Origin: Patescibacteria group bacterium
Lineage (GTDB): Bacteria; Patescibacteriota; UBA1384; XYA2-FULL-43-10; 1-14-0-10-43-13
Length of the DNA: 64,000 bases
Reading direction: 5' to 3'
Assembly: GCA_041674765.1 (NCBI GenBank)
Contig: JBAYVE010000001.1
Coordinates: 134,177 to 198,176 of the forward strand
The position numbers and the translations under genes are program-made. The notes under the pieces were generated by a model. It saw only the letters and a list, made by a program, of their open reading frames with translations. It made no database searches and was not told the DNA's origin. Positions 2,322-58,695 of this stretch are shown in pieces; position 1 is the first letter of the stretch, and each line of letters opens with the position of its first letter.

Positions 2322-2733
2322 ATCTTTAAAATCCTAATTTCTAATTACTAATTTTTTAATCAAATCCTAATTAAATAATTGATTAATTACATTTGGAATT
2401 GACTTGAACATTAGAAATTCTTAATTTTCTAATTCTACTGGTTATTTTATCAGAAAGAGGCGAGATTGTAAAGACATTGATTCCGTAATTTCGAAAACCT
2501 TGCTATTTTCCTGTTTCTTATTGTTCGAAGAGGAACGACGAGAACTTCGGTCACCTATTAGTACCGACAGACTTCTCATTTTTAAGAGTACCATTCGAAG
2601 AATAAATACATTTAATAGGGTTTTAGAGAATCACGGATTGATTTTTCTATATGATCGATCTTAGAATAAAAGGTTGTACTAAGTTGTCTATTCGAATACC
2701 ACCCTTAAATAATTGCCATTTAATGATTTATTA

Positions 2734-3712: not shown

Positions 3713-5599
3713 TTAACTTTTATTATAGTCGCTTATTATTTTGTCAGCTTCAGCTTCGCTTAGATTACCAAACGGTGCAAAATCATTCCATGAAAAATCA
3801 AAAGCGCCTTTTTCTTTTATAACATTGTTAACCGCTTTTTGCATTATCGCTCCTCCCAAAGAGAAGATCATATCAGAGCTATTTTTTGTAAGTGCTTCGC
3901 TCGAAGCAGTGAAGGTAGGACCGGTGTTGGAGTAACGGACTAAAACCATAGCTTCTTTTGCATTGTCCGTCACACGTATTCCGCTGTTCATCGTGTCTAT
4001 CTTTAGCAACGGTGTCTGATTTATATTATCTTTAGCAATTTTACACATTTTGTTGGCAATATCATACTTCAACAATCCATCTTTTTTGTCTAACCCCGGC
4101 TTGAATTCCCTGATAATGGTTTGGGGAACATCGTATTCCTTTTGAAGATATTCAAGTTGCTGCATAGGGCTCTTATGCCAGATTTGTGCAGAGAGTCCCA
4201 AAATATAAGTCAGGAAAATCGCCGCGTCATCTCCGCCCTGAACCAAGGGATAAAATTTGGGTGCGCCCCAAATAGGATTCGTCATAGGCGTCAGAAAGGC
4301 ATGGTTGGTATTTTCGACGGCGATTACCGCATCTTTATGTTTGCTCATTAATTCCATAAAGAAGGGATAACCGGGCTCAGAAGCTATCGTGCTGACTTTA
4401 TAATTGCGGCTTTTTAGGGCCTCCGTCAGAAGATTTGCGCTTATCCCGGTCCTCATGTCATAAATAATTGCATGCTCAAGGCCATCAGGATTGTACGTAG
4501 CGAGGTTTTCCAGTGCGAGCATCAAAAGCTCTGTGCCTGTGAGAGAAATAGCTTTACCTGTAGCGTTTAATGCAATGATACTGCCACGATCTCCGTCAGG
4601 ATCCAGGGCTAAATATATCCGGCCATCTTTTTCGGCCTTTTCTTTCAGCGCTTTCATCGGAGCTGATTCATGCTCATTCGGGTCGATGATATTTTCTAAT
4701 TGGAAATTTGAATTTAATTTTTCATTTTGAACTTCGACCTCGGCGCCAAAGGCTCTGAGAATTTCAACTAGGTTTTTCCCGACTGGGCTGCCTGACATGT
4801 TAAAACCAATTTCCAAACCCTTCAATAACTCATTCTTGGGGACCGCCGTTCCTGTTCTTGCCCTAACTAAATCTTCACAGATATCGATGTTATTTGCGGT
4901 AAGATCACCGACGGTTACAGCAAAGTCTTTGGGGTTGTTTACCCCTATTAAATCGGGATATTCACCTTTGATGAATTTGCCGTAAAAATCTTGCATCAGA
5001 TCTGGTCCGCAAAAGACTTTTCCAAGCATCCCGAATTTCGCCCCAAGGTAATCATCGGCTTTATGGCTCATCGTTCCGTAAATCCAGTTGCCGCCGTGTC
5101 CGGTAGAAGCATACATAAATTCTGAAAGATTGCGTATGGCCCCACCATTTTGCACACCCCAGTAAATTATTCCGCCATCCCTGACGATGCCTGTTTGAAT
5201 AAGTGTGTCGGCAAATATCGACATTGAGTCGTAGTGTTTTTCGTAACAATCTACGGCAATGTTAATAATATGACCTGTCTCTTGTCCACTTCTTTCTATC
5301 AGCACTGAAGCATAGGCCAAGGCGAATAAAACTGTTAGCTCGGGATTTTCGCGCCAGACAGAGGAACGGATATCATACCACATCACCTGTCCTCGAAGCA
5401 TATTTTCCAAAGCTTCATCTTTGTGCAATCTTGCTAAAAATTTCAGAGCTCTTTGATAAATGATTTGGTGACCGCTAGCCCCGATCTTTAGCTGTCGACC
5501 AAAAATATCTGTAAGATCTCTCCCAACCGGAATGGTATTGGGGGAGCGTCTGGCCATTTTTTTGACTAAATTCTCAAGGTTTTTTTGTTCGTTTGCCAT
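3713..5599 (-). CDS. divergent alpha-D-phosphohexomutase superfamily protein (phosphomannomutase/phosphoglucomutase-like)
   Basis: 628 aa. Metal-binding loop LDPDGDR (the DxDxDR signature) and a sugar-loop-like GGDDAA. The canonical TASHNP Ser loop is not obvious. Operon context with manC and an epimerase supports the call. Confidence 0.5.
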   Translation of the reverse strand: MANEQKNLENLVKKMARRSPNTIPVGRDLTDIFGRQLKIGASGHQIIYQRALKFLARLHKDEALENMLRGQVMWYDIRSSVWRENPELTVLFALAYASVLIERSGQETGHIINIAVDCYEKHYDSMSIFADTLIQTGIVRDGGIIYWGVQNGGAIRNLSEFMYASTGHGGNWIYGTMSHKADDYLGAKFGMLGKVFCGPDLMQDFYGKFIKGEYPDLIGVNNPKDFAVTVGDLTANNIDICEDLVRARTGTAVPKNELLKGLEIGFNMSGSPVGKNLVEILRAFGAEVEVQNEKLNSNFQLENIIDPNEHESAPMKALKEKAEKDGRIYLALDPDGDRGSIIALNATGKAISLTGTELLMLALENLATYNPDGLEHAIIYDMRTGISANLLTEALKSRNYKVSTIASEPGYPFFMELMSKHKDAVIAVENTNHAFLTPMTNPIWGAPKFYPLVQGGDDAAIFLTYILGLSAQIWHKSPMQQLEYLQKEYDVPQTIIREFKPGLDKKDGLLKYDIANKMCKIAKDNINQTPLLKIDTMNSGIRVTDNAKEAMVLVRYSNTGPTFTASSEALTKNSSDMIFSLGGAIMQKAVNNVIKEKGAFDFSWNDFAPFGNLSEAEADKIISDYNKS

Positions 5600-13826: not shown

Positions 13827-14459
13827 TTGTTAATGATTGATCTGGAAAAAGAAAAAGAATTAAATGCGTTGAGGCATGAAGTATCTTCTTGCCTGAAATG
13901 CTCTCTTTGCAAGACCAGGATGCACACAGTTTTCGGAGAGGGTAATTCCAGTTCCTCAATAATGTTTGTGGGAGAAGCTCCGGGGGCTAAAGAAGATTTA
14001 AGCGGTATTCCATTTTGCGGTGCTGCCGGCAAATTTTTGGACGAAATGCTTATAAAAGCAGGTCTCGATCGGAGTAAAGTATATATAGCAAATACCCTAA
14101 AGTGCCGACCTCCGGAGAATAGAGACCCTGAAGAATCTGAAAAAACAGAGTGCAAAAATTATTTATTACACCAAATTGAAATTATCAAACCAGCCTTGAT
14201 CGTCTGCCTTGGTCGTCACGCGACTAGAGAGATGTTGCCCGGAATGCCAAGTATTTCCAAAATACACGGTCATGCATTGAAGCGGCTAAACGGCATTGTC
14301 TACCTTCCTCTTTATCATCCGGCAGCAGCTCTACATAACGGGGCCTTAAGAAAAACGCTAATTGATGACTTCATGAAAATACCGGTCATTCTTGGCAAAC
14401 TGGGAAGAAAAGCCAAAAGCTTAAAGCTTAAAGCAAAAAGCAGGGGACAAATTGAATAA
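13827..14459 (+). CDS. uracil-DNA glycosylase, family 4
   Basis: CxxC cluster plus the GEAPGAKEDLSGIPFCGAAGKFLD motif characteristic of family-4 UDG. Confidence 0.85.
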   Translation: MLMIDLEKEKELNALRHEVSSCLKCSLCKTRMHTVFGEGNSSSSIMFVGEAPGAKEDLSGIPFCGAAGKFLDEMLIKAGLDRSKVYIANTLKCRPPENRDPEESEKTECKNYLLHQIEIIKPALIVCLGRHATREMLPGMPSISKIHGHALKRLNGIVYLPLYHPAAALHNGALRKTLIDDFMKIPVILGKLGRKAKSLKLKAKSRGQIE

Positions 14460-22467: not shown

Positions 22468-24813
22468 ATGGCATCTAAGTTGAAGTATGTTCTCTGGTTC
22501 AAGGAAATCGGTAAGGACGATATTCCGTTAGTCGGCGGCAAAGGCGCCAATCTTGGTGAGCTCACGAAGGCTGGCATTCCGGTGCCGAATGGTTTTTGCG
22601 TCACGGCTCAGGCTTACTACCACTTTTTGAAGAAGACCGGCATTGAAAACCAAATCAATAAACTTTTGAAAGGTCTAAATCCGGAGGATAACAAAAAGTT
22701 GAATAAAGTTGCTAAGGAAATTAAAAAGATTATCCTTGGAGCAGAAATTCCTGACGATCTCTCGAAAGCAATCGAAGAATCCTATTATCAGCTTGGCAGT
22801 TTCCCGGTGGCTGTCCGCTCTAGCGCTACTGCCGAAGATTTGCCAGAAGCCTCATTCGCCGGCCAGCAGGCGACTTTTCTGAACATCAAGGGCAAGAAAA
22901 AGGTGGTAGAAGCCACTTTGGCTTGTTATGCCTCCTTATTCGAAGCTAGAGCTATTTACTACCGGATTATCAACAAATATGACCACATGAAGATTGGCTT
23001 GTCAGCAGTCGTCCAAAATATGGTTCAGTCTGACAAATCGGGCATTCTCTTTACTGTCGACCCTGTTTCAGAAGACGCCGGCAAAATGGTAATCGAAGCA
23101 GGCTATGGCCTAGGAGAGGCAATAGTTTCCGGGTCTGTCACGCCGGACCGTTATATTATCGATAAATCAAAATCAGAAATTATTGACAAAGAAATAAACC
23201 GTCAGACTTGGAAAATTGTACATAATATTGAAGGGGGAGACAAGCATTTGGCAGTGTCGAAAAGCCTTCAATCCAAACAAAAAATCACCGATGAAGAGGT
23301 ATTAAAATTGGCGGAAATCGCCCTAAAAATCGAAAAACATTATGGCAAACCGCAAGATACAGAGTGGGCAATTGAAGACAGCGTAGTCTATTTCGTCCAA
23401 TCCCGTCCTATCACCACATTAAATAAAAAGTCAATCCATTCGGCAGGCTCCGGACAAGCAATAAAAAGTCAAAACGAAGGTATTACCTCTGGCGATTCTA
23501 TTGAAATCGGCAAAGCAACCGTTTTGCTTAAAGGTGCCGCCGCTTCTCTCGGGATGGCTTCTGGGCCTGTCAAAATAATTCATAAGCCGACAGAGATAGA
23601 CAAAATTCAGCAGGGTGATGTTTTGGTCACAGAAATGACAACCCCTGATTTTGTGCCAGCAATGAGAAAAGCGACTGCGATAGTCACTGATACCGGCGGT
23701 CGGACTTGTCACGCAGCGATAGTTTCTCGCGAGCTTGGCATCCCATGCGTTGTTGGTACAGGGACAGCCACTCACAAACTTGCTAACGGTCAGGTTATCA
23801 CCGTCGATGGTGCGAGCGGAATGGTCTATAAGGGAAAAATTTCACAGAGTCAGACTCAAAATACAGCAAAAATCGCAGGTTCGGGTTCACAAGTCTCTGA
23901 AGAGATACCTGTTACTGGCACAAAAGTTTATGTTAATCTAGGTGAGCCTCAATTGGCCGCTGAAATTGCAAAACTTCCTGTCGATGGTGTTGGTCTTCTT
24001 CGGGCTGAATTTATGATTGCAAATCTCGGCGAGCATCCGAAGGCAATGGTAGCAGCCGGTCGTTCTGAAAAATACGTTGCTGCTCTAGTGGAAGGATTAA
24101 AAACAATTGCCGGAGCATTTAACCCGCGTCCGGTAGTTTATCGCGCAACAGATTTCAAAACAAATGAATACAGGGGACTCAAAGGCGGGGATAAATATGA
24201 GCCGGTTGAGGATAATCCGATGATTGGCTACAGGGGGGCTTCCAGATATATCGCCGAGCCCGAGATGTTTGCCCTTGAACTAAGAGCCATCAAAAAGGTT
24301 CGAGACGAATTTGATCTAAAGAATCTCTGGATTATGGTGCCATTTGTTCGCACTGTCAGCGAGATGAAAGAATGTATGGAGTTGATTGAGAAGAACGGTT
24401 TGAAACAGGGCGCTGATCTCAAAATTTGGATGATGTGCGAAGTGCCATCAAATGTAATACTCCTCGAAAAATTTCTTGATCTTGGCATTGATGGGATATC
24501 AATTGGTTCCAATGATTTGACTCAGTTGACTCTTGGTGTTGATCGGGACAATCAAACATTGGCCAAAATCTTCGACGAACGCGATGAAGCTGTACAGCTG
24601 TCGATTGAATATGTGATCAAGACCTGCCGCAAGCGAAATGTGACCTGTTCTATCTGCGGTCAGGCTCCGAGCGTCTACCCTGAGATTACTGAAATGATGG
24701 TCAAGGCGGGCACGACTTCTGTTTCTGTCACTCCGGATATGATCATTCCAACAAAAAAACTAATCGCATCGGTAGAGAAACGAATACTGCTCTCAAAAAT
24801 TATTGAACGGTAG
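22468..24813 (+). CDS. ppsA: phosphoenolpyruvate synthase (pyruvate, water dikinase)
   Basis: ATP-grasp N-terminal domain, phosphohistidine motif TCHAAIVSRELGIPCVVG, PEP-utilising C-terminal motif GSNDLTQLTLGVDRDN. Confidence 0.9.
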   Translation: MASKLKYVLWFKEIGKDDIPLVGGKGANLGELTKAGIPVPNGFCVTAQAYYHFLKKTGIENQINKLLKGLNPEDNKKLNKVAKEIKKIILGAEIPDDLSKAIEESYYQLGSFPVAVRSSATAEDLPEASFAGQQATFLNIKGKKKVVEATLACYASLFEARAIYYRIINKYDHMKIGLSAVVQNMVQSDKSGILFTVDPVSEDAGKMVIEAGYGLGEAIVSGSVTPDRYIIDKSKSEIIDKEINRQTWKIVHNIEGGDKHLAVSKSLQSKQKITDEEVLKLAEIALKIEKHYGKPQDTEWAIEDSVVYFVQSRPITTLNKKSIHSAGSGQAIKSQNEGITSGDSIEIGKATVLLKGAAASLGMASGPVKIIHKPTEIDKIQQGDVLVTEMTTPDFVPAMRKATAIVTDTGGRTCHAAIVSRELGIPCVVGTGTATHKLANGQVITVDGASGMVYKGKISQSQTQNTAKIAGSGSQVSEEIPVTGTKVYVNLGEPQLAAEIAKLPVDGVGLLRAEFMIANLGEHPKAMVAAGRSEKYVAALVEGLKTIAGAFNPRPVVYRATDFKTNEYRGLKGGDKYEPVEDNPMIGYRGASRYIAEPEMFALELRAIKKVRDEFDLKNLWIMVPFVRTVSEMKECMELIEKNGLKQGADLKIWMMCEVPSNVILLEKFLDLGIDGISIGSNDLTQLTLGVDRDNQTLAKIFDERDEAVQLSIEYVIKTCRKRNVTCSICGQAPSVYPEITEMMVKAGTTSVSVTPDMIIPTKKLIASVEKRILLSKIIER

Positions 24814-25258
24814 GAATTCGATTTTTATCGTTCGAACATCGCATATTATGATTCAAACAAAGTGAGAACTAACTTAGTTTTTATATTTCAGCGGAAGATT
24901 TATCCTCTTAAAACCCCACAATAGATCCCACTTCGCTTCCTCCTTCGCTAAAGCTACGGAATGGCACGGCGAGGGACACGGTCGGAATGACTAACTATTT
25001 TGCAGTACTTAGTACTATAATCTGAAGATTTCTCCCCCTTTTCGAGGGGGAGCTAGAGGGGGTGTATTTAAATTTGTCATCCCAGGGGCAGGCAAAGTCG
25101 AAGGCCGGGGATTCAATGCCTCTTTATCGTTCGAACAAGCGAGAACTATTCTTTTTTTGTGCCTATCAAAGCAAGCGCTCTTACCTCAACCTCTTGACTG
25201 CTATGTCGATTCGGCGTATAATATATATAGAAATATCCCACAATAAGGAGGTACGGGG

Positions 25259-25687
25259 ATGTTTAGTTTTGGTGGTTCGCAGGGAATCAAGTTGTACATC
25301 AATGGCAGATTTTCTGCCCGAGGGATGACTTCGCTCAAGTTAATCAAGCGTCGAGTTATAGATAGTCGCTTGAGATCCCAATATTATCGTGCTCACATTG
25401 AGCACACCCGTGAAGTCACTCCTCAACAGAGAGAGCTATTAAGTCAACTGATGCCGTCGATCTCTTGCAAGCTCAAAACGATCGAAAGCGTCGCGATCGA
25501 CGTTTATGAGAAAAGCCGAGCCGAAGTGGTTGGCATGGTCGACCCAGTGACCGCTCGCGTTGACGTGCTGCAGGCAAGTCCTTTAGGAATTTTGCAATTT
25601 GCAGTTATTGTTGACATAACCATTCCTCGCGTCATCGACGCATGGAATGTTCCAAGTACAGAAAATAGCTGCCCCAAGGCATCTTAG
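25259..25687 (+). CDS. hypothetical protein in a GC-rich islet
   Basis: Strong Shine-Dalgarno AAGGAGG 7 nt upstream. Followed by a perfect intrinsic terminator. GC content clearly above the window average. Confidence 0.5.
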   Translation: MFSFGGSQGIKLYINGRFSARGMTSLKLIKRRVIDSRLRSQYYRAHIEHTREVTPQQRELLSQLMPSISCKLKTIESVAIDVYEKSRAEVVGMVDPVTARVDVLQASPLGILQFAVIVDITIPRVIDAWNVPSTENSCPKAS

Positions 25688-25706: not shown

Positions 25707-25746
25707 CTTTCCCTGACCGGTTCGTCCGGTCAGGGAAAGTTTTTTA
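25707..25746 (+). terminator. rho-independent terminator
   Basis: Perfect 14-bp stem ctttccctgaccgg / ccggtcagggaaag, loop ttcgt, then a T-run. Confidence 0.75.
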
Positions 25747-27965: not shown

Positions 27966-28055
27966 ATCTGCTTGTCTGTCATTCCTGCGGAGGCAGGAAT
28001 CTAGGTACGAAAACGCGCCTTCTGGATCCCGGATCAAGTCCGGGATGACAAGGGG

Positions 28056-35089: not shown

Positions 35090-35375
35090 TGCAAGTTAAG
35101 TGTACATAATTATTTCGTATTTTAAAACAAATGGCTGACTTTTGCTTTCCGGATTGTTTCCGATTGAATAAAGGCAGATAATTTGATAGTATTACTTCGT
35201 TTCCCGCATTCTGCTAAAGCGGTAGGAAGAGAGTATTTCTTCAAGAAACGTTCTTACTTCAAATAGCTAGAAGAGAATGAAATGATATAATCATGGAGAG
35301 GTTCCCGCATTCCGCCAAGCGGAAGCAGGGACGCCTGCTTCGCCAGTCGGCGAATGCGGCGCGCTATACCGATTA

Positions 35376-35618
35376 ATGTTTTTTACATATATATTAAAAA
35401 GTGATAAAGATAATAAATACTATTATGGCTCAACCGCAAATATAGATAATCGTTTATTGGAGCACAATAGTGGTAAAGTAATAGCAACGAAAAATCGACG
35501 TCCGTTCAAGTTAATCTTCTCTGAAGAATTCAGTACAAGGAGAGAAGCAATAAAGAGGGAATTTTTCTTCAAGAAGCGTTCGGGATATAAATGGCTTAAG
35601 GATAATAATATTATATAA
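35376..35618 (+). CDS. GIY-YIG nuclease superfamily protein (UPF0213 / YhbQ-like)
   Basis: FFTYILKSDKDNKYYYGSTANIDNRLLEHNSG is the GIY-YIG core. 80 aa. Confidence 0.8.
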   Translation: MFFTYILKSDKDNKYYYGSTANIDNRLLEHNSGKVIATKNRRPFKLIFSEEFSTRREAIKREFFFKKRSGYKWLKDNNII

Positions 35619-35621
35619 TAC

Positions 35622-35711
35622 GGTGGGATCGCATAGTGGCCTAGTGCGCACGCTTGGAAAGCGTGTAGGCGGGCAACCGTCTCCAGGGTTCGAATCCCTG
35701 TCCCACCGCCA
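35622..35711 (+). tRNA. tRNA-Ser (anticodon GGA) with encoded CCA
   Basis: Cloverleaf read directly from the sequence. Acceptor stem GGTGGGA/TCCCACC, anticodon loop TTGGAAA, long variable arm, T-loop GGTTCGAATCC, and a 3' GCCA. Confidence 0.85.
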
Positions 35712-49094: not shown

Positions 49095-49380
49095 CTTTCC
49101 CTCCGTTTCTCATATCAGGCTTAGGCCTGTTTGCTGGCGTTATAATATAACATTTATTTCTGTTAGTCAAGGGTAAATTCCGTGATCCTAACCCCATCAA
49201 AGGTATTTATTCTTCGAATGGTACTCTTAAAAATGAGAAGTCTGTCGGTACTAACAAATGATCAAAGTTCTCGTCGTTCCTCCTCGAACAATAAGAAACA
49301 GGGAGATAGTAAGGTATTCGGAATCACGGCAAATTACAAAAAATTTGCAAAAAATCAATTTGCTCTCTAAAATTAGTCTT

Positions 49381-51085: not shown

Positions 51086-51698
51086 GTCAGCTAGTCTTGC
51101 GACTGCCGACCGAGTCAGTTAGTCGGGGCTCTTCACCCCTGAGTTTGGAAAAAAATTTCTCGGGGATCCACGATGTATGTCTCCTCGTGTTGAGTTTATC
51201 AGCGGAGAGCTGAAGCTTCTGCTAAAGTTTCAGTAACTGACAATTGATTATTTGCCTGGTTTATTTCCTGTTGTAGGAAAAGCTGATGCACGGTTGCCGA
51301 TGAATATTCATACGGACGGTTTGGCAGGGAGCTTATAACACCCAGGGAATATCAACGACAGATTCTGCCTACTTCGCAGGAACATTCAGAACCTCTGATT
51401 GTTGAAACAATACCTCAAGAATAAACGCTTGTCAATAGGCCAATCGTTTTTTTGTTTTTAGCTACTTTCAGTGCCAATAACTAACTCTTATGTTTCTTTG
51501 TTGCTGGCAGCATCATATTGTCATTGCCCATGTCTTGTTTTTGTTCTACTCTTTTTTTGATAAAAAGATTGGTATGCCTTTTTTCGTGGGTGTAATTCTT
51601 TTTGCCTTTTTCTTCTTTTGACATGAGAATATTTTAGTAATAATCTTATTCCAATCCAAGAGCAAAAATGATATTAAAATTAGTGTTGTGATAATAGT

Positions 51699-51926
51699 GT
51701 CATCCTCGGGCAGGCATCGCCATGACCCGGGGATCCAATACCTTATTATCATCCAAACAAAGATTTTATTGTTCGAACACAGTGAGAATTATTATCATTT
51801 CTATTAGAGGACATGGGGACTCTCCGCCAGCTGGCGGACCGAAGTCGTCCCCCTATCCTCTAATAGCAATAAGGTATTGGATCCCCGGGCACCATTTCCA
51901 AAAACACCATTGGTCCCGAGGATGAC
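51699..51926. repeat. nested inverted-repeat structure (12-bp, 22-bp and 11-bp arm pairs plus an internal GC palindrome)
   Basis: gtcatcctcggg / cccgaggatgac and cccggggatccaataccttatt / aataaggtattggatccccggg are perfect pairs; a third pair was read as ctattagagga / tcctctaatag but could not be confirmed against the sequence. Inner palindrome ccgccagctggcgg. The 3' arm overlaps the mug start. Confidence 0.8.
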
Positions 51927-52506
51927 ATTGTATATAGTATTTATTGTGAATCGCAATAAGCCCACAAAAGAAGATTTGGCAAATGCTATCCATAAAAAGG
52001 TGCCAGATATTATTGCGCCGAATCTAAAATTATTATTTGTCGGCATTAACCCCGGCCTTTATACAGCCGCAATCGGCCGCCATTTTGGTCATCCGGCCAA
52101 TAGATTCTGGAAGGCACTTTTTGATTCGGGCCTTTCGCCCAAGTTATTATCGCCATACGAAAATGAGAAATTATTGAAACTTGGCTTTGGCATTACTAAT
52201 TTAGTTGAAAGGCCGACATTGAGAGCGAACGAAGTAACGAAAGAAGAGCTTGTTGAAGGTAGAAAAATACTGGAGAAAAAAGTAAAAAAGTTTAAACCAA
52301 AATTCATTGCAATTTTGGGCTTAGGAGCTTATCAGATTGCTTTTAATAAAAAAGCAAAAATTGGCCCGCAGGAAGAAAATATTGCAGGTGCCAAAGTTTG
52401 GGTCTTGCCCAATCCAAGCGGATTGAATGCTAGCTTCACGCCGAATAAATTGGCTTCAATTTTTCGACAGCTTAAATTAGCACTTGATAAGTCGTATTTA
52501 GGCTGA
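51922..52506 (+). CDS. mug: G/U mismatch-specific uracil-DNA glycosylase (Mug/TDG family)
   Basis: VPDIIAPNLKLLFVGINPGLYTAAIGRHFGHPANRFW aligns with the E. coli Mug N-terminal catalytic region. The start is uncertain because it sits inside the inverted repeat. Confidence 0.8.
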   Translation: MTLYIVFIVNRNKPTKEDLANAIHKKVPDIIAPNLKLLFVGINPGLYTAAIGRHFGHPANRFWKALFDSGLSPKLLSPYENEKLLKLGFGITNLVERPTLRANEVTKEELVEGRKILEKKVKKFKPKFIAILGLGAYQIAFNKKAKIGPQEENIAGAKVWVLPNPSGLNASFTPNKLASIFRQLKLALDKSYLG

Positions 52507-56751: not shown

Positions 56752-57069
56752 ATGAATTACGAAAATGCTATCGACCCGAGTCTAATGGAGGACATTAATA
56801 GTATTGATACCTCTGAATCGGAGCAAAAAAACTCACGAGAGAATCTTCGCGAGGGGATAGAATACGTATTTCGTCCCGCATTGCGTACATCTGGGGCAGG
56901 GGAGAACGGTTATGTGCCAAACCTTGAGTTTGGCAGAGGTATCTATATTGGGCTTGTCGACGGAAAGACAATGTTTCGGGGTCACCCCAAAAGCTATCCA
57001 GATGAAGTTTTTTTCTTCAATTTTGAATCAAGTGGTACAAGCCACATTTTTGAGCCCAGTAATAAATAA
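56752..57069 (+). CDS. hypothetical protein
   Basis: GGAGGG Shine-Dalgarno. No recognisable motif. Followed by a GC hairpin at 57107-57140. Confidence 0.4.
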   Translation: MNYENAIDPSLMEDINSIDTSESEQKNSRENLREGIEYVFRPALRTSGAGENGYVPNLEFGRGIYIGLVDGKTMFRGHPKSYPDEVFFFNFESSGTSHIFEPSNK

Positions 57070-57170
57070 GGTTTTTTGTGAACACGTCTATTTCTGTCAT
57101 CATTAAAGTTAACGCCCCAGGGGGTGGGGCGTTTAATTAGATGGCAATTGAGGACAAGGTTCGGATACAA

Positions 57171-57402
57171 GTAGCCCAGCCTTCAGGCTGCACAAGCTGA
57201 AGCTTGGTCTACAAGAACTTTGTAGCCTACCCTTTAGGGTGATTTTGCAAGCTTCCCACTTAGTTGAAACTACCACCCTTCGCCCTAAGACTATGGCGTG
57301 GCACAGCGAGGGACAAGAAATCTTAGACTACCAGAAGTCCCATAGCTCCACCTTTCAGGGTGTTCCCAAAGTCCATTCCTTCGTAGTTCAGCCTTTAGGC
57401 TG
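57171..57402 (+). repeat. REP-like tandem array on the 5' side of the RAYT (five units)
   Basis: Units start at 57171, 57222, about 57272 (degenerate), about 57343 and 57383. Consensus GTAGCCCACCCTT(C/T)AGGGTG, a 20-nt palindrome beginning with GTAG. Spacers carry a second palindrome, caAGCTgAAGCTTg. Confidence 0.85.
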
Positions 57403-57414
57403 TCAACAAAACTT

Positions 57415-57960
57415 ATGAGACCAAACTATAAACCAAATTTTACCAACCGTCCGAATCATATTCAGCAAGATGATAGTTTTTATTTCCTTACTGTCCGAAC
57501 TGTCAATGCCCAGTGGTTTTTGCAGCCTGACCCCTACAAGCAGATTGTGTTTGACAAAATCCATGAAAAAATCAAGAAGTTTGGCTATCAGCTTATTGCA
57601 TTTGCGATTCTCAATAACCACTATCATTTGCTTGTAAAAATAGTCGATTCAAAGAAGATCGCTAAGTTTATGAACGAATTAAACGGAGCAAGTGCCAGAG
57701 AAATAAATAAGGCTGATTTTGTCATCGACCGCAAAATTTGGTGGAATTACCTCGACCACGTTATTCGAGACGAAGCTGACTTTTTCAAACATTTAAATTA
57801 TATCCACCAAAACCCGATTAAACATGGACTAACAAAGGAATTGGACTATAAATTCTCAAGCTATTCTGCTTGGGTGAGGAAGAAAGGCGTGGAATATCTA
57901 AATCATTCGTTTGAGAAATATCCGGTCGTAGATTTCAAAACATTCAACGACGAATTTTGA
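57415..57960 (+). CDS. REP-associated tyrosine transposase (RAYT; IS200/IS605-like HUH Y1 transposase)
   Basis: HUH motif NNHYHLLVKIV and a C-terminal YIHQNPIKHGL motif (the RAYT Y-x-x-NP(V/I)(K/R)xGL catalytic-Tyr region). Flanked by REP arrays. Confidence 0.85.
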   Translation: MRPNYKPNFTNRPNHIQQDDSFYFLTVRTVNAQWFLQPDPYKQIVFDKIHEKIKKFGYQLIAFAILNNHYHLLVKIVDSKKIAKFMNELNGASAREINKADFVIDRKIWWNYLDHVIRDEADFFKHLNYIHQNPIKHGLTKELDYKFSSYSAWVRKKGVEYLNHSFEKYPVVDFKTFNDEF

Positions 57961-58003
57961 GATAATAATTCCAACAAGCTGAAGCTTGATCTCCGTTTTC
58001 ATC

Positions 58004-58241
58004 GTAGCCCAGCCTTTAGGCTGATGTCACAATCTAAAGATTGTACTTCCCTAACCGGGACCAACCTTTAGGCTGATTTTACAAATTGAAGCTTGTTATG
58101 TCAGAAACCCTGTAGCCCACCCTTTAGGCTGAACTAACAAACTAAAGTTTGTTCTACGATATAATTGTAGGTCACCCTTCAGGGTGTCGTTATCAAGCTA
58201 AAGCTTGCACTACTTTTTTCCGTAGCCCACCCTTCAGGGTG
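58004..58241 (+). repeat. REP-like tandem array on the 3' side of the RAYT (five units, period about 54-55 nt)
   Basis: Units at 58004, 58058 (degenerate), 58112, 58167 and 58222. All GTAG-led and in the same orientation. Same AAGCTnAAGCTT spacer module. Confidence 0.85.
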
Positions 58242-58281
58242 TGTCTTGAGACTTGAATTGATTAGCTATTCAGAATAAGAT

Positions 58282-58695
58282 TTGAGTATGATTGTTTACA
58301 AAACAAAATCTAAGAAACTTGGCGGTACTAGCTATAAAGAAGTTATCAAAAAAGCTAGAAAAGCCTATCACGAAATAGAAAAACGGTCAAAAAGAACCGC
58401 CCACCTTCGCTCTGTTTATTTTAAAAAAACAAATATTTTCATAAATCTATTTTGGGATCATCTAGACCAAAAATCGCCTAGAGATAGATTGAGAAGATTA
58501 AAACTTCTGCCTTGTGCTTATGAACTGATTGAAAATTCCGTTCACAAACCAACCTCGAAAATCAACCCAAACAATAAGAATGAAATCTTACATCGTTTCG
58601 GAGGAATTACTACAAATGATGAGTTGTTTTATGTTCAGATAAAAGAAAATAAAGCTGGCCGGAAGGATTTTATTTCAGTATTTCCTGAGGAATAA
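58282..58695 (+). CDS. hypothetical basic protein
   Basis: ORF only. Confidence 0.35.
   Translation: MSMIVYKTKSKKLGGTSYKEVIKKARKAYHEIEKRSKRTAHLRSVYFKKTNIFINLFWDHLDQKSPRDRLRRLKLLPCAYELIENSVHKPTSKINPNNKNEILHRFGGITTNDELFYVQIKENKAGRKDFISVFPEE

Follow-up and report, generated by a model that had tools for sequence, protein, structure and literature searches.

The spacer downstream of ppsA was analysed within a window of 64 kb, the whole stretch of DNA under study, to which all positions refer. The ppsA gene lies at 22468–24813 (domains PPDK_N, PEP-utilizers and PEP-utilizers_C), and the next open reading frame begins at 25259. The spacer between them (24815–25260, referred to as the island) is a genuine patchwork of short hairpin repeats, arranged in the order M3, M2, M4, M1 (which is like the Ssn-related motif, SRM) and M3 (Table 1). 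The repeats are placed between the ppsA stop codon and a consensus promoter of an orphan ORF of 142 aa; this promoter is followed by a ribosome-binding site (AAGGAGG) and the ATG at 25259. The promoter stretch itself is unique sequence and not a repeat, and BLAST gave no significant similarity to any of the collected loci. Its derivation from the right arm of M3, suggested by a by-eye likeness to two of these loci (L065 and L083), was dropped: the M3 model gave no minus-strand match at E ≤ 10, and nothing was found by BLAST.

A homologue search with the orphan ORF returned the query itself as the sole match, and the ORF is weakly coding by codon usage. A terminator, separate from the hairpin units, is present at 25707–25739. 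The inverted SRM-head fragment within the ORF forms a 16-nt inverted repeat with 25076–25091, for which the chance expectation is 0.08 matches per window. An interpretation of 25076–25329 as one element bounded by inverted repeats was abandoned; the right end repeats the outer 16–19 nt only, and the interior consists of unique promoter and coding sequence. In a relative (L131) with a ppsA that is 64% identical, the region downstream of the gene shares nothing with the island, so that no empty site can be defined.

Table 1. Positions and properties of the repeat modules and neighbouring features in the window. R1 is the covariance model for M3 described in the text.
Feature	Position	Strand	Description
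M3 doublet	2517–2606		plus unit, then minus unit; R1 E = 7e-3 and 1.5e-3; in nested palindrome of ~160 nt (2487–2648)
M3 doubled unit	24824–24873	+	TTATCGTTCGAACA at 24825–24838 and TTATGATTCAAACAAAGTGAGAACTA at 24846–24871; R1 30.4 bits, E = 7.9e-5
M2	24926–24978		core 24942–24978; similar to 57277–57315 in the left RAYT-flanking array
M4	25004–25073	+	GTACT-rich lead, hairpin CTCCCCC-TTTTCGA-GGGGGAG (25033–25053), then CTAGAGGGGG
M1	25075–25120	+	T-GTCA-TCCCAGGGG...GCCGGGGA-TTCAAT, one stem mismatch
M3 unit	25123–25150	+	TTATC-GTTCGA-ACAAGC-GAGAAC-TA; R1 29.5 bits, E = 1.3e-4
Sigma-70-type promoter	25194–25222	+	TTGACT-17-TATAAT, for ORF 25259–25687; 11 of 12 consensus positions
Orphan ORF	25259–25687		142 aa; downstream of the island
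Inverted SRM-head fragment	25311–25329	−	GTCATCCCTCGGGCAG...; inside the 5′ part of the orphan ORF
NTS-like SRM pair	27978–28050		canonical short loop, face to face; TGTCATTCCTGCGGAGGCAGGAATCTAGG (+), TGTCATCCCGGACTTGATCCGGGATCCAG (−)
GIY-YIG nuclease gene	35376–35618	+	80 aa; the only one in the window (tblastn)
M3 doublet, second copy	49206–49295		inverted orientation; R1 E = 1.5e-3 and 1.2e-3
Left M1/SRM-like hairpin	51698–51742	+	91% identical to a unit in a Saccharibacteria MAG (L051)
M3 doubled	51745–51793	+	degenerate TTATCATCCAAACA and canonical unit (51765–51793); R1 36.4 bits, E = 2.3e-6
M5 inner palindrome	51801–51866		GAGGACATGGGGAC...GTCGTCCCCCTATCCTC
Right M1/SRM-like hairpin	51873–51927	−	25-nt loop; 96% identical to L110 4164–4111
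RAYT gene	57415–57960	+	Y1_Tnp E = 2.3e-11; GTAG-headed REP arrays on both sides (57171–58241)

Similarity of the island modules to other repeats

An earlier note on this DNA had pointed to similarities between the island and other parts of the window, and had named shuffled controls as the place where these might break down; against such controls they hold up. The likeness drawn between 25076–25150 and 51699–51795 was recovered as a local alignment of 25075–25138 with 51698–51760 (score 40), a score reached by none of 500 pairwise shuffles (mean 14.6, maximum 25) and by none of 60 shuffles compared with both strands of the whole window (maximum 35). For the proposed match of 24930–25000 to 57270–57340, the core comprises 24942–24978 and 57277–57315 (score 37; maximum of 28 in whole-window shuffles, 0 of 60 reaching it), and by eye a common TCCCACTT may stretch the match upstream to 24926 and 57253. 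The third module, placed at 24826–24885, 25121–25150 and 51757–51795, is borderline window-wide by plain alignment (score 33, reached by 1 of 60 shuffles); all three copies were found by a covariance model built from other genomes only (R1, E-values in Table 1). The hairpin at 25033–25053 is present and stable (−8.9 kcal/mol as DNA, z = −2.25) and the 51.7-kb palindrome is real (51699–51927; RNA fold of −116.7 kcal/mol, z = −11.8). The island is, as had been proposed, a composite of dispersed repeat-family members, with modules common to the 51.7-kb palindrome and the RAYT flank. Its description as GC-rich applies in part: the high GC is confined to M2 (53%) and M1 (52%), whereas overall GC is 42.4% in the island and 40.6% in the window, and 34% of all 446-nt windows match or exceed the island.

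M2, with a core of 39 nt, is the island's only link to the RAYT flank. Two copies are known, and no further copy was found in 872 kb of collected loci. It was tried as a folded REP hairpin, which was rejected as M2 folds no better than shuffles on either strand (z about 0); M2 is not a canonical REP unit. Four copies of M4 were found in related metagenome contigs, one in L110 (4352–4308; 91%, E = 2e-12), one in L099 (1484–1519; 89%) and two in L093 (3558–3616, 83%, and 3837–3798, 92.5%). L093 and L110 carry 700-nt mosaics of the same modules, and L093 keeps the order M4-M1-M3.

The 51.7-kb element measures 229 nt, has arms of ~45 nt in inverted orientation and is composed of SRM, M3, M5 and inverted SRM. 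The M5 core (CTCTCCGCCAGCTGGCGGACCGAAG) resembles a variant of the M3 right arm; M5-related copies are found in L110 (3880–3975) and L093 (about 3760–3790), and L090 carries ...CTTCTCTCCGCCAGCTGGCGGATCGAAGAATAA.

Properties of M1

In M1, a TGTCAT head is followed by a stem, a loop and the complementary stem, and the tail ends in CCA, as in CGTC REPs. M1 has both the conserved 5′ head (GTCAT), which gives the unit its orientation, and the 3′ tail, and the two agree with the published descriptions of SRM/NTS and CGTC REPs. The arm pattern GTCATCC-N15-40-CCGGGGATYCAAT gave three matches in the window and none in shuffles. The same pattern detected 11 loci in the Patescibacteria MAG STC_25 and four in SO_2017_GW1_213; in Patescibacteria MAGs, M1 is multi-copy and occurs either singly or inversely paired with near-canonical NTS such as TGTCATTCCCGCGGAAGCGGGAATCC. 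In an alignment of 28 units, in which the head GTCATCC and the tail GGATYCAAT are fixed by the search pattern, conservation beyond that pattern was seen for the T that precedes the head (in 27 units) and for the stem start TCGGG.

The published SRM search pattern is HGTCWY-N(0-2)-YYVSBRH-N(0-5)-WNVSBRG-N(0-2)-RNCYNB. The M1 unit of the island does not match it strictly, owing to the stem mismatch and a loop longer than 5 nt; both M1 arms of the 51.7-kb palindrome fit if a loop of up to 30 nt is allowed and the last base is left free. Judged by its sequence, M1 resembles a long-loop variant of the CGTC-tagged REP or SRM. Of the face-to-face pair in the gap between two minus-strand genes (Table 1), the unit at 28022–28050 is a strict match to the SRM pattern and that at 27978–28001 is NTS-like. 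Both were found with a generic scan for GTCA-stem-TC hairpins, which returned 10 against 6.8 expected by chance and was used only to locate these two canonical units. Exact NTS cores are present in L123 and L072. Neither the window nor the collected loci yielded a GIY-YIG gene with M1 at its flanks.

Association of M3 with GIY-YIG genes

M3 is distinct from M1 and has the consensus TTATY-[G/C]TTC-GA-loop-GA-GAA[C/G]-TA, without resemblance to the SRM pattern. In the island, the doubled unit starts 11 nt past the ppsA stop codon and aligns to 51743–51791, the second unit begins 3 nt after M1, and the 15-nt TTTATCGTTCGAACA is identical at 24824 and 25123. Units were first gathered with a pattern derived from the window, and the pattern scan showed M3 to be a repeat family that includes arrays. 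The covariance model R1 was made from units that lie beside GIY-YIG genes of other genomes (five loci); it finds seven units in the window, both island copies among them. The two elements that hold the M3 doublets (2487–2648 and 49175–49333) are identical in most columns over their common ~160 nt. The M3 stem covaries: 94% of cells are paired and there are 24 double changes, a level that none of 500 shuffles reached. Pair 7-30 is GC in 21 cases and CG in 6, and pair 13-24 is AU in 13 and GC in 13.

M3 and the GIY-YIG gene are tightly associated. Nine Patescibacteria loci were obtained by protein homology via one GIY-YIG family, and not by the M3 pattern derived from the window; five of them had been used for model building and four are independent. 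M3 units adjoin a GIY-YIG gene of 82–98 aa in all nine loci, on both sides in eight and downstream only in the ninth, and the flanking units are inversely oriented. The stop codon of the gene is overlapped by a unit in at least seven of the nine (in most loci by the downstream unit, at a TAG). In the four independent loci, all 17 R1 matches with E < 0.01 lie within ~200 nt of the GIY-YIG gene, and in each of these loci a minus-strand unit overlaps or abuts its 3′ end. At L101 the gene (PF01541, E = 4.9e-13) lies between M3 arrays and starts inside a unit; the homologues of its product, more than 200 among the matches listed, are ~63–83% identical. The M3-linked proteins are assigned to Pfam PF01541, gave one weak, sub-threshold NCBIfam match and no more, and have UPF0213 proteins as closest solved structures (1ZG2, E = 2.4e-14, and 1YWL). 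The pairing of M3 with GIY-YIG appears to be undescribed.

Elsewhere, gene-less copies of M3 form doublets and arrays. Gene callers read through repeat arrays, which yields spurious peptides such as ...YRSNEVRT... and ...SSRPCTRTI.... The 64-kb window contains no GIY-YIG gene of the M3 type. The gene at 35376–35618 belongs to a subfamily that differs from the M3-linked one, with the UPF0213 proteins 1YWL and 1ZG2 as closest solved structures; it is a candidate partner of hairpin repeats but was dropped as a partner for M1 or M3, the loci of its homologues (L131–L134) having neither an M3 match nor an SRM.

Alternative explanations

Hairpin repeats are usually ascribed to RAYT by default, and the earlier note had seen the island as a product of RAYT-driven REP/BIME-like proliferation, in which all modules would be REP variants moved by the Y1 transposase of 57415–57960. 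As a structural description of the island, REP/BIME-like is fair; the driving role given to RAYT was not supported. The window does have a RAYT gene with flanking REP arrays, M2 is common to the island and the left flank, and the modules are clustered and hairpin-forming, like BIMEs. However, the REPs beside the gene (57171–57402 and 57975–58241) have a GTAG head and alternate in orientation. The pattern GTAG-N3-A-N-CCTT-N-AGG-N-TG has 19 matches in the window against 3.3 expected, and those with zero mismatches all flank the RAYT gene, whereas 24815–25260 contains none even with three mismatches allowed. No M1, M3 or M4 unit is present at 57000–58300, the RAYT flanks gave no copy with the M3 model or the published SRM pattern, and the one module in common, M2, is without a REP-like fold. 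Conversely, a RAYT gene was sought near M3 units in the collected loci, which gave one weak Y1-like match (L067), several kb off. The head of M1 is CGTC/TGTC; CGTC-tagged REPs were never found flanking RAYT genes (PMC3733652), and CGTC-type motifs and SRMs have been tied to GIY-YIG Ssn nucleases (PMC11893778). Because GTAG REPs occur only at RAYT, M1 is CGTC-like, M3 stands beside GIY-YIG genes at nine of nine loci and the RAYT flanks are free of M3 and SRM, a RAYT-driven origin is unsupported, and this explanation, already weakened, is very improbable.

With its 229 nt and inverted arms, the 51.7-kb element could also be taken for a MITE, i.e. a non-autonomous derivative of a DDE-type insertion sequence that has terminal inverted repeats and is served by a transposase in trans. 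The near-identical ~160-nt elements have short terminal inverted repeats as well, and the genome is full of nested palindromes. Yet neither the window nor the 872 kb of loci yielded an insertion sequence whose ends match, and neither target-site duplications nor empty sites came to light. Single units and alternating arrays are found too, an arrangement like that of REPs and unlike that of MITEs. Each of the 'terminal repeats' also forms a hairpin of its own, whose conserved head is asymmetric, as is the case for SRMs; we consider an origin as MITEs quite unlikely. Structured RNA elements (leaders, terminators, processing sites or small RNAs), acting in transcripts and not as DNA hairpins, would fit the covariation of the M3 stem, the location of several copies just upstream of gene starts and the very strong folding of the 51.7-kb element as RNA. 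Against this, Rfam gave tRNA-Ser as the sole above-threshold match over the window, no family at E ≤ 10 in 24780–25360 (thus across the island) and noise only in 51600–52000. The units are found in either orientation, also as tandem arrays in which the direction alternates, and the hairpins are not followed by a T-run, the separate terminator downstream of the orphan ORF being the only one detected. Stable DNA mini-hairpins typically have tandem G-A pairs and GAA-type loops, as these units do. The substrate of SsnA, moreover, is single-stranded DNA and not RNA (PMC11893778). A role as RNA elements is most improbable.

Proposed origin and significance

The modules exist in dispersed copies, the M3 hairpin covaries, M1 resembles SRMs, and the island is free of RAYT-type REPs. 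We consider it probable that the island is a NIME/BIME-like intergenic mosaic of at least four hairpin families, two of which are related, by resemblance or by company, to small single-domain GIY-YIG nucleases and not to RAYT. Such a mosaic would arise by accretion and shuffling of short hairpin-forming units. When their DNA is single-stranded, in replication, repair or uptake, the units may form hairpins that could be bound or cut by a cognate nuclease; copies would then spread and recombine into mosaics via break repair or through recombination of one unit with another. Where the host depends on DNA uptake, the units could modulate transformation, as shown for Neisseria. Since a single window holds a RAYT/GTAG-REP locus together with two hairpin families that are apparently of the GIY-YIG kind, both kinds of system can be separated in one genome.

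More tentatively, the M3 hairpin and the conserved Patescibacteria GIY-YIG protein of 82–98 aa (WKWYVYI...KDFSRKKKEALW) may constitute an undescribed Ssn-like pair, in which a nuclease that acts specifically on single-stranded DNA would be matched to a hairpin site of its own. If true, the Ssn principle would also cover a second class of motif and, probably, a UPF0213-like clade, with gene-less doublets and arrays spread through candidate-phyla-radiation genomes. The island and the 51.7-kb element would then be footprints of this system, mixed with long-loop SRMs, and the system could gate the integration of incoming DNA in uptake-dependent bacteria. Patescibacteria have tiny genomes and are thought to depend on pili and competence for DNA uptake (PMC12455944), and the repeats may influence which incoming DNA stays in these organisms. 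The Ssn family was described only in 2025; M3 and its GIY-YIG gene offer a testable candidate pair with a new recognition sequence, in a phylum outside that study, and could add a tool for cutting single-stranded DNA.

Comparison with known systems

Ssn nucleases and their NTS/SRM repeats were described by Chenal et al. (2025, PMC11893778), who published the NTS (CGTCATTCCCGCGMAVGCGGGAATCYRG) and an SRM consensus and predicted many nuclease-motif pairs with differing specificities; motifs of the SRM type serve elsewhere as single-stranded-DNA recognition hairpins of SsnA-type nucleases (PMC11893778). The repeats studied here share with these the short hairpin with an asymmetric conserved head (HGTCWY) and tail and the many clustered intergenic copies. 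M1 has the same head, stem design and tail, with canonical copies at 27978–28050, and the M3-GIY-YIG-M3 layout equals that of NTS-ssnA-NTS (a repeat, a small single-domain gene and a repeat). The differences are the loops of M1 (13–25 nt, compared to 0–5 nt in SRM), the unrelated sequence of M3 (TTATY-GTTCGA...GAGAAC-TA), the clade of the M3-linked protein, which among solved structures is nearest to UPF0213, and the host, Patescibacteria being unmentioned in that paper (PMC11893778).

CGTC REPs end in a CCA tail, are mostly arranged as head-to-head dimers and coexist with GTAG REPs (Di Nocera et al. 2013, PMC3733652). M1 and both arms of the 51.7-kb element fit this plan of an unpaired (C/T)GTC head, a GC-rich stem, a CCA tail and head-to-head dimers, and here too the units coexist with GTAG REPs in one genome, away from the RAYT flanks. 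They differ in that the head is TGTC and the loops are long, and the five phyla reported for CGTC REPs do not include Patescibacteria (PMC3733652).

In REPIN-RAYT systems, of which the window offers a textbook example at 57171–58241, a single nuclease/transposase gene is flanked by its own hairpin repeats and doublets are dispersed in the genome. This organization is shared by M3, whose partner is, however, a predicted GIY-YIG nuclease and not an HUH Y1 transposase, and the island modules are without the GTAG head. In NIMEs and BIMEs, short inverted hairpin repeats (dRS3/NTS or REPs) enclose other modules, which makes an intergenic patchwork. The modules differ in sequence and the hosts in phylum, but the island (M3, M2, M4, SRM, M3) and the 51.7-kb element are built likewise.

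Repeat composition of the island

The window sequence is part of a 365-kb metagenome contig (ENA ERZ27247358, k141_2245327; NCBI locus tags WC107_, Patescibacteria group bacterium). Similarities cited in the earlier note for the island, the spacer between ppsA and the downstream ORF (24815–25260), were tested by alignment against shuffled controls, either pairwise (n = 500) or by scoring shuffled queries on both strands of the entire window (n = 60). The alignment of 25075–25138 to 51698–51760 scored 40, above the maxima of pairwise (25; 0/500) and whole-window shuffles (35; 0/60), and that of 24942–24978 to 57277–57315 scored 37 (whole-window shuffle maximum 28); both similarities are real. 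The third module, M3, was borderline in plain alignment (score 33, reached by 1/60 shuffles), but is independently confirmed by R1, a covariance model of the M3 unit.

All sequence between the ppsA stop codon and 25150 is repeat-derived or AT-rich filler, and a unique segment follows (Table). Modules M1, M3 and M4 recur in the window and/or other contigs, and the island is indeed the composite of dispersed repeats that had been proposed. The proposed kinship with the 51.7-kb palindrome (nested, 229 nt, fold z = −11.8) also holds, as both contain the M1 arm pattern and R1 matches, and the reported hairpin is present. The description as GC-rich applies locally, with only M2 and M1 exceeding 50%, but not overall (42.4% versus 40.6% for the window). 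In L131, a relative in which the RecX-ppsA context is conserved, the spacer is unrelated to the island, which is thus lineage-specific.

The unique segment carries a near-consensus promoter and a strong ribosome-binding site, followed by an orphan ORF. A search of 5.8 billion proteins gave no homolog of this ORF, whose coding signal is weak; its 5' part contains an inverted head fragment of a Ssn-related motif (SRM), and a strong terminator lies downstream. A 33-nt stretch spanning the −10 region and transcript start (25206–25238; TCGAT..GTA.A.TATATATAG.AAATA.CC) resembles 14065–14097 (score 34, reached by 1/60 shuffles) and may represent a shared promoter motif.

Features of the island and related loci (window positions unless a locus is named)
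Feature	Position	Remark
ppsA	22468–24813	PPDK_N, PEP-utilizers, PEP-utilizers_C
M3 unit	24824–24873	R1, E = 7.9e-5
M2	24926–24978	
M4	25004–25073	
Hairpin	25033–25053	−8.9 kcal/mol as DNA, z = −2.25
M1	25075–25120	arm pattern at 25076–25117
M3 unit	25123–25150	R1, E = 1.3e-4
Promoter	25194–25222	TTGACT-17-TATAAT
Orphan ORF	25259–25687	142 aa, ATG at 25259
Inverted SRM-head fragment	25311–25329	
Terminator	25707–25739	14-bp stem
M3 doublets	2517–2606 and 49206–49295	R1; within palindromes 2487–2648 and 49175–49333
NTS-like unit	27978–28001	
Strict SRM match	28022–28050	
M3 unit	51765–51793	R1, E = 2.3e-6
Y1 transposase (RAYT) ORF	57415–57960	
GTAG hairpin arrays	57171–57402 and 57975–58241	
Roseibium/Labrenzia 38-nt repeat	L006, L016, L017, L026, L035, L042, L043, L052	
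Palindrome–GIY-YIG–tRNA-Ser(GGA) copies	L131 2922–3328; L134 2929–3322	

RAYT locus and the relationship of M1

Proliferation of the island repeats had been attributed to the RAYT. GTAG-headed hairpins in alternating orientation lie on either side of the transposase ORF, and the GTAG REP pattern gave 19 matches in the window against 3.3 expected, those with zero mismatches being confined to the two flanking arrays. No match was found in the island at up to 3 mismatches. The region 57171–58241 is a textbook REP-RAYT arrangement and a system separate from the island, whose modules do not include its REP. M2 is the exception shared with that flank: the single further copy of its 39-nt core lies inside the left array. 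It has no REP-like fold, and no further copy occurs across 872 kb of fetched loci.

The arm pattern of M1, GTCATCC-N15-40-CCGGGGATYCAAT, matched three times in the window (0 in shuffles): in the island and at the left and, as reverse complement, the right end of the 51.7-kb element. Scanning one genome per species yielded 59 loci, with 11 in the MAG Patescibacteria STC_25, 4 in SO_2017_GW1_213 and others in Gracilibacteria, Saccharibacteria and further candidate-phyla-radiation MAGs. In Roseibium and Labrenzia (Alphaproteobacteria), the pattern also matches a 38-nt repeat present in multiple copies (GTCATCCCCGGCAAGCGCAGCGCGACCGGGGATCCAAT), in keeping with how abundant CGTC-type REPs are known to be in that class. 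The aligned unit, T-GTCA-TCCTCGGG-loop-CCCGGGGA-TCCAAT, occurs singly or paired with an inverted short-loop partner, e.g. TGTCATTCCCGCGGAAGCGGGAATCC. This partner nearly equals the Neisseria NTS, CGTCATTCCCGCGMAVGCGGGAATCYRG, which is the ssDNA recognition hairpin of SsnA, a 94-aa GIY-YIG nuclease; the NTS has been generalised to SRMs, which flank 71% of ssnA homologs (Chenal et al. 2025, PMC11893778). Exact NTS cores were found in L123 and L072.

Within the window the published SRM pattern had a strict match adjoined by an NTS-like unit, the arms of the 51.7-kb element fitted only with the loop limit relaxed, and the island M1 failed, with one stem mismatch. On sequence grounds, M1 appears to be a long-loop variant of the known CGTC-type REP/SRM kind. 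Repeats of the NTS/SRM sort were already grouped as CGTC-tagged REPs (Di Nocera et al. 2013, PMC3733652), a class with CCA tails and head-to-head dimers that occurs alongside GTAG REPs and was in no case found next to RAYT genes. M1 is thus of a kind not tied to RAYT which, together with the lack of GTAG REPs in the island, argues against the RAYT attribution.

The strict match and its neighbour (27978–28050) are two canonical, facing NTS-like SRMs occupying the ~90 nt that separate two minus-strand genes, and one of them differs very little from the Neisseria NTS consensus.

M3 hairpins and an associated GIY-YIG gene

A second hairpin family, M3, is linked to a GIY-YIG gene. Scanning metagenomes with TTATYRTTCGAACA-N1-28-GAGAAYTA gave 56 loci, many with an inverted partner and some with tandem alternating arrays. 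Between two M3 arrays of L101 lies a GIY-YIG gene of 95 aa (PF01541, E = 4.9e-13), the first codons of which fall within an M3 unit. The protein has >200 homologs (among those listed ~63–83% identity, mostly 82–98 aa), which occur in Daviesbacteria, Levybacteria, Gottesmanbacteria and other Patescibacteria; the nearest solved structures for the M3-linked proteins are UPF0213 proteins.

Further loci were chosen via protein homology and not by DNA motif. M3 units lie a few bases from the gene on both sides in L118, L121, L123 and L125, and in L118, L123 and L125 the downstream unit, TAGTTCTC...TCGAACAATAA, opens with the stop codon TAG. In the hairpin alignment of 29 flanking units, 94% of cells were paired with 24 double changes (reached by 0/500 shuffles); pairs 7–30 (GC 21, CG 6) and 13–24 (AU 13, GC 13) covary. 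R1 was built from these 29 units and then applied to four other loci retrieved by protein (L127–L130): 17/17 matches at E < 0.01 lay no more than ~200 nt from the gene, whose 3' end is overlapped or abutted by a minus-strand unit in 4/4, L127 having units downstream only. In all, M3 units stand beside the gene in 9/9 loci.

R1 detected 7 units in the window. Its doublets sit within two near-identical ~160-nt nested palindromes, which are in opposite orientation, have short terminal inverted repeats (about ATCCGTRATTYC) and look like recent copies; no target duplication was definable there.

In L128 (1–8297) the M3-linked gene lies amid a type IV pilus/type II secretion-like cluster (pilins, prepilin peptidase, platform protein, ATPases), a single case suggestive of a link to DNA uptake. 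Gene callers translate M3 arrays as if they were coding, so that spurious or extended proteins arise in which peptides such as YRSNEVRT and SSRPCTRTI recur (L101 4036–4302; fetched protein P0002); annotation of Patescibacteria should guard against this artefact.

The only GIY-YIG gene in the window (35376–35618, 80 aa) belongs to another subfamily, and the loci of its homologs had no M3 or SRM units. A conserved, GC-rich nested palindrome (35298–35370) lies before this gene and tRNA-Ser(GGA) after it, and a 64-nt direct repeat (35228–35291 ~ 35556–35619) stands on either side; the order palindrome–gene–tRNA (35228–35711) is kept at 72–75% nucleotide identity in two other Patescibacteria. In L131 (3340–3830) a second GIY-YIG gene (97 aa) directly follows the tRNA-Ser, with ~90-nt direct repeats, seen by eye, on either side that include the tRNA 3' end; this resembles an insertion into the tRNA gene.

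Mosaic assembly and comparison with Neisseria

Four further copies of M4 were found in L093, L110 and L099 (83–92% identity, E from 1.6e-7 down to 2e-12). L093 (3500–4200) and L110 (3700–4354) are 700-nt intergenic mosaics sharing M4, SRM-type hairpins, M3 and M5, the inner palindrome of the 51.7-kb element, and the order M4-M1-M3 is common to L093 and the island. M3 often lies 5–30 nt after a GTCAT-type hairpin (L067, L093, L097, L110, L114). From these mosaics and this spacing it follows that the island is one case of lineage-wide intergenic mosaic building from these units.

Overall, RAYT does not account for the island, which is best explained as a mosaic of the NIME/BIME sort, made of hairpin repeats with links to GIY-YIG (Ssn-type) nucleases; it includes a long-loop variant of the SRM and an M3/GIY-YIG pairing that seems to be undescribed. 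A literature search found no paper on these repeats in Patescibacteria, and neither target duplications nor empty sites were found for them. By analogy with SsnA, we infer that the GIY-YIG partner would recognise and cleave the hairpins and that the repeats would be mobile. The way in which these units build mosaics is like that in Neisseria, where dRS3/NTS repeats bracket other repeats.
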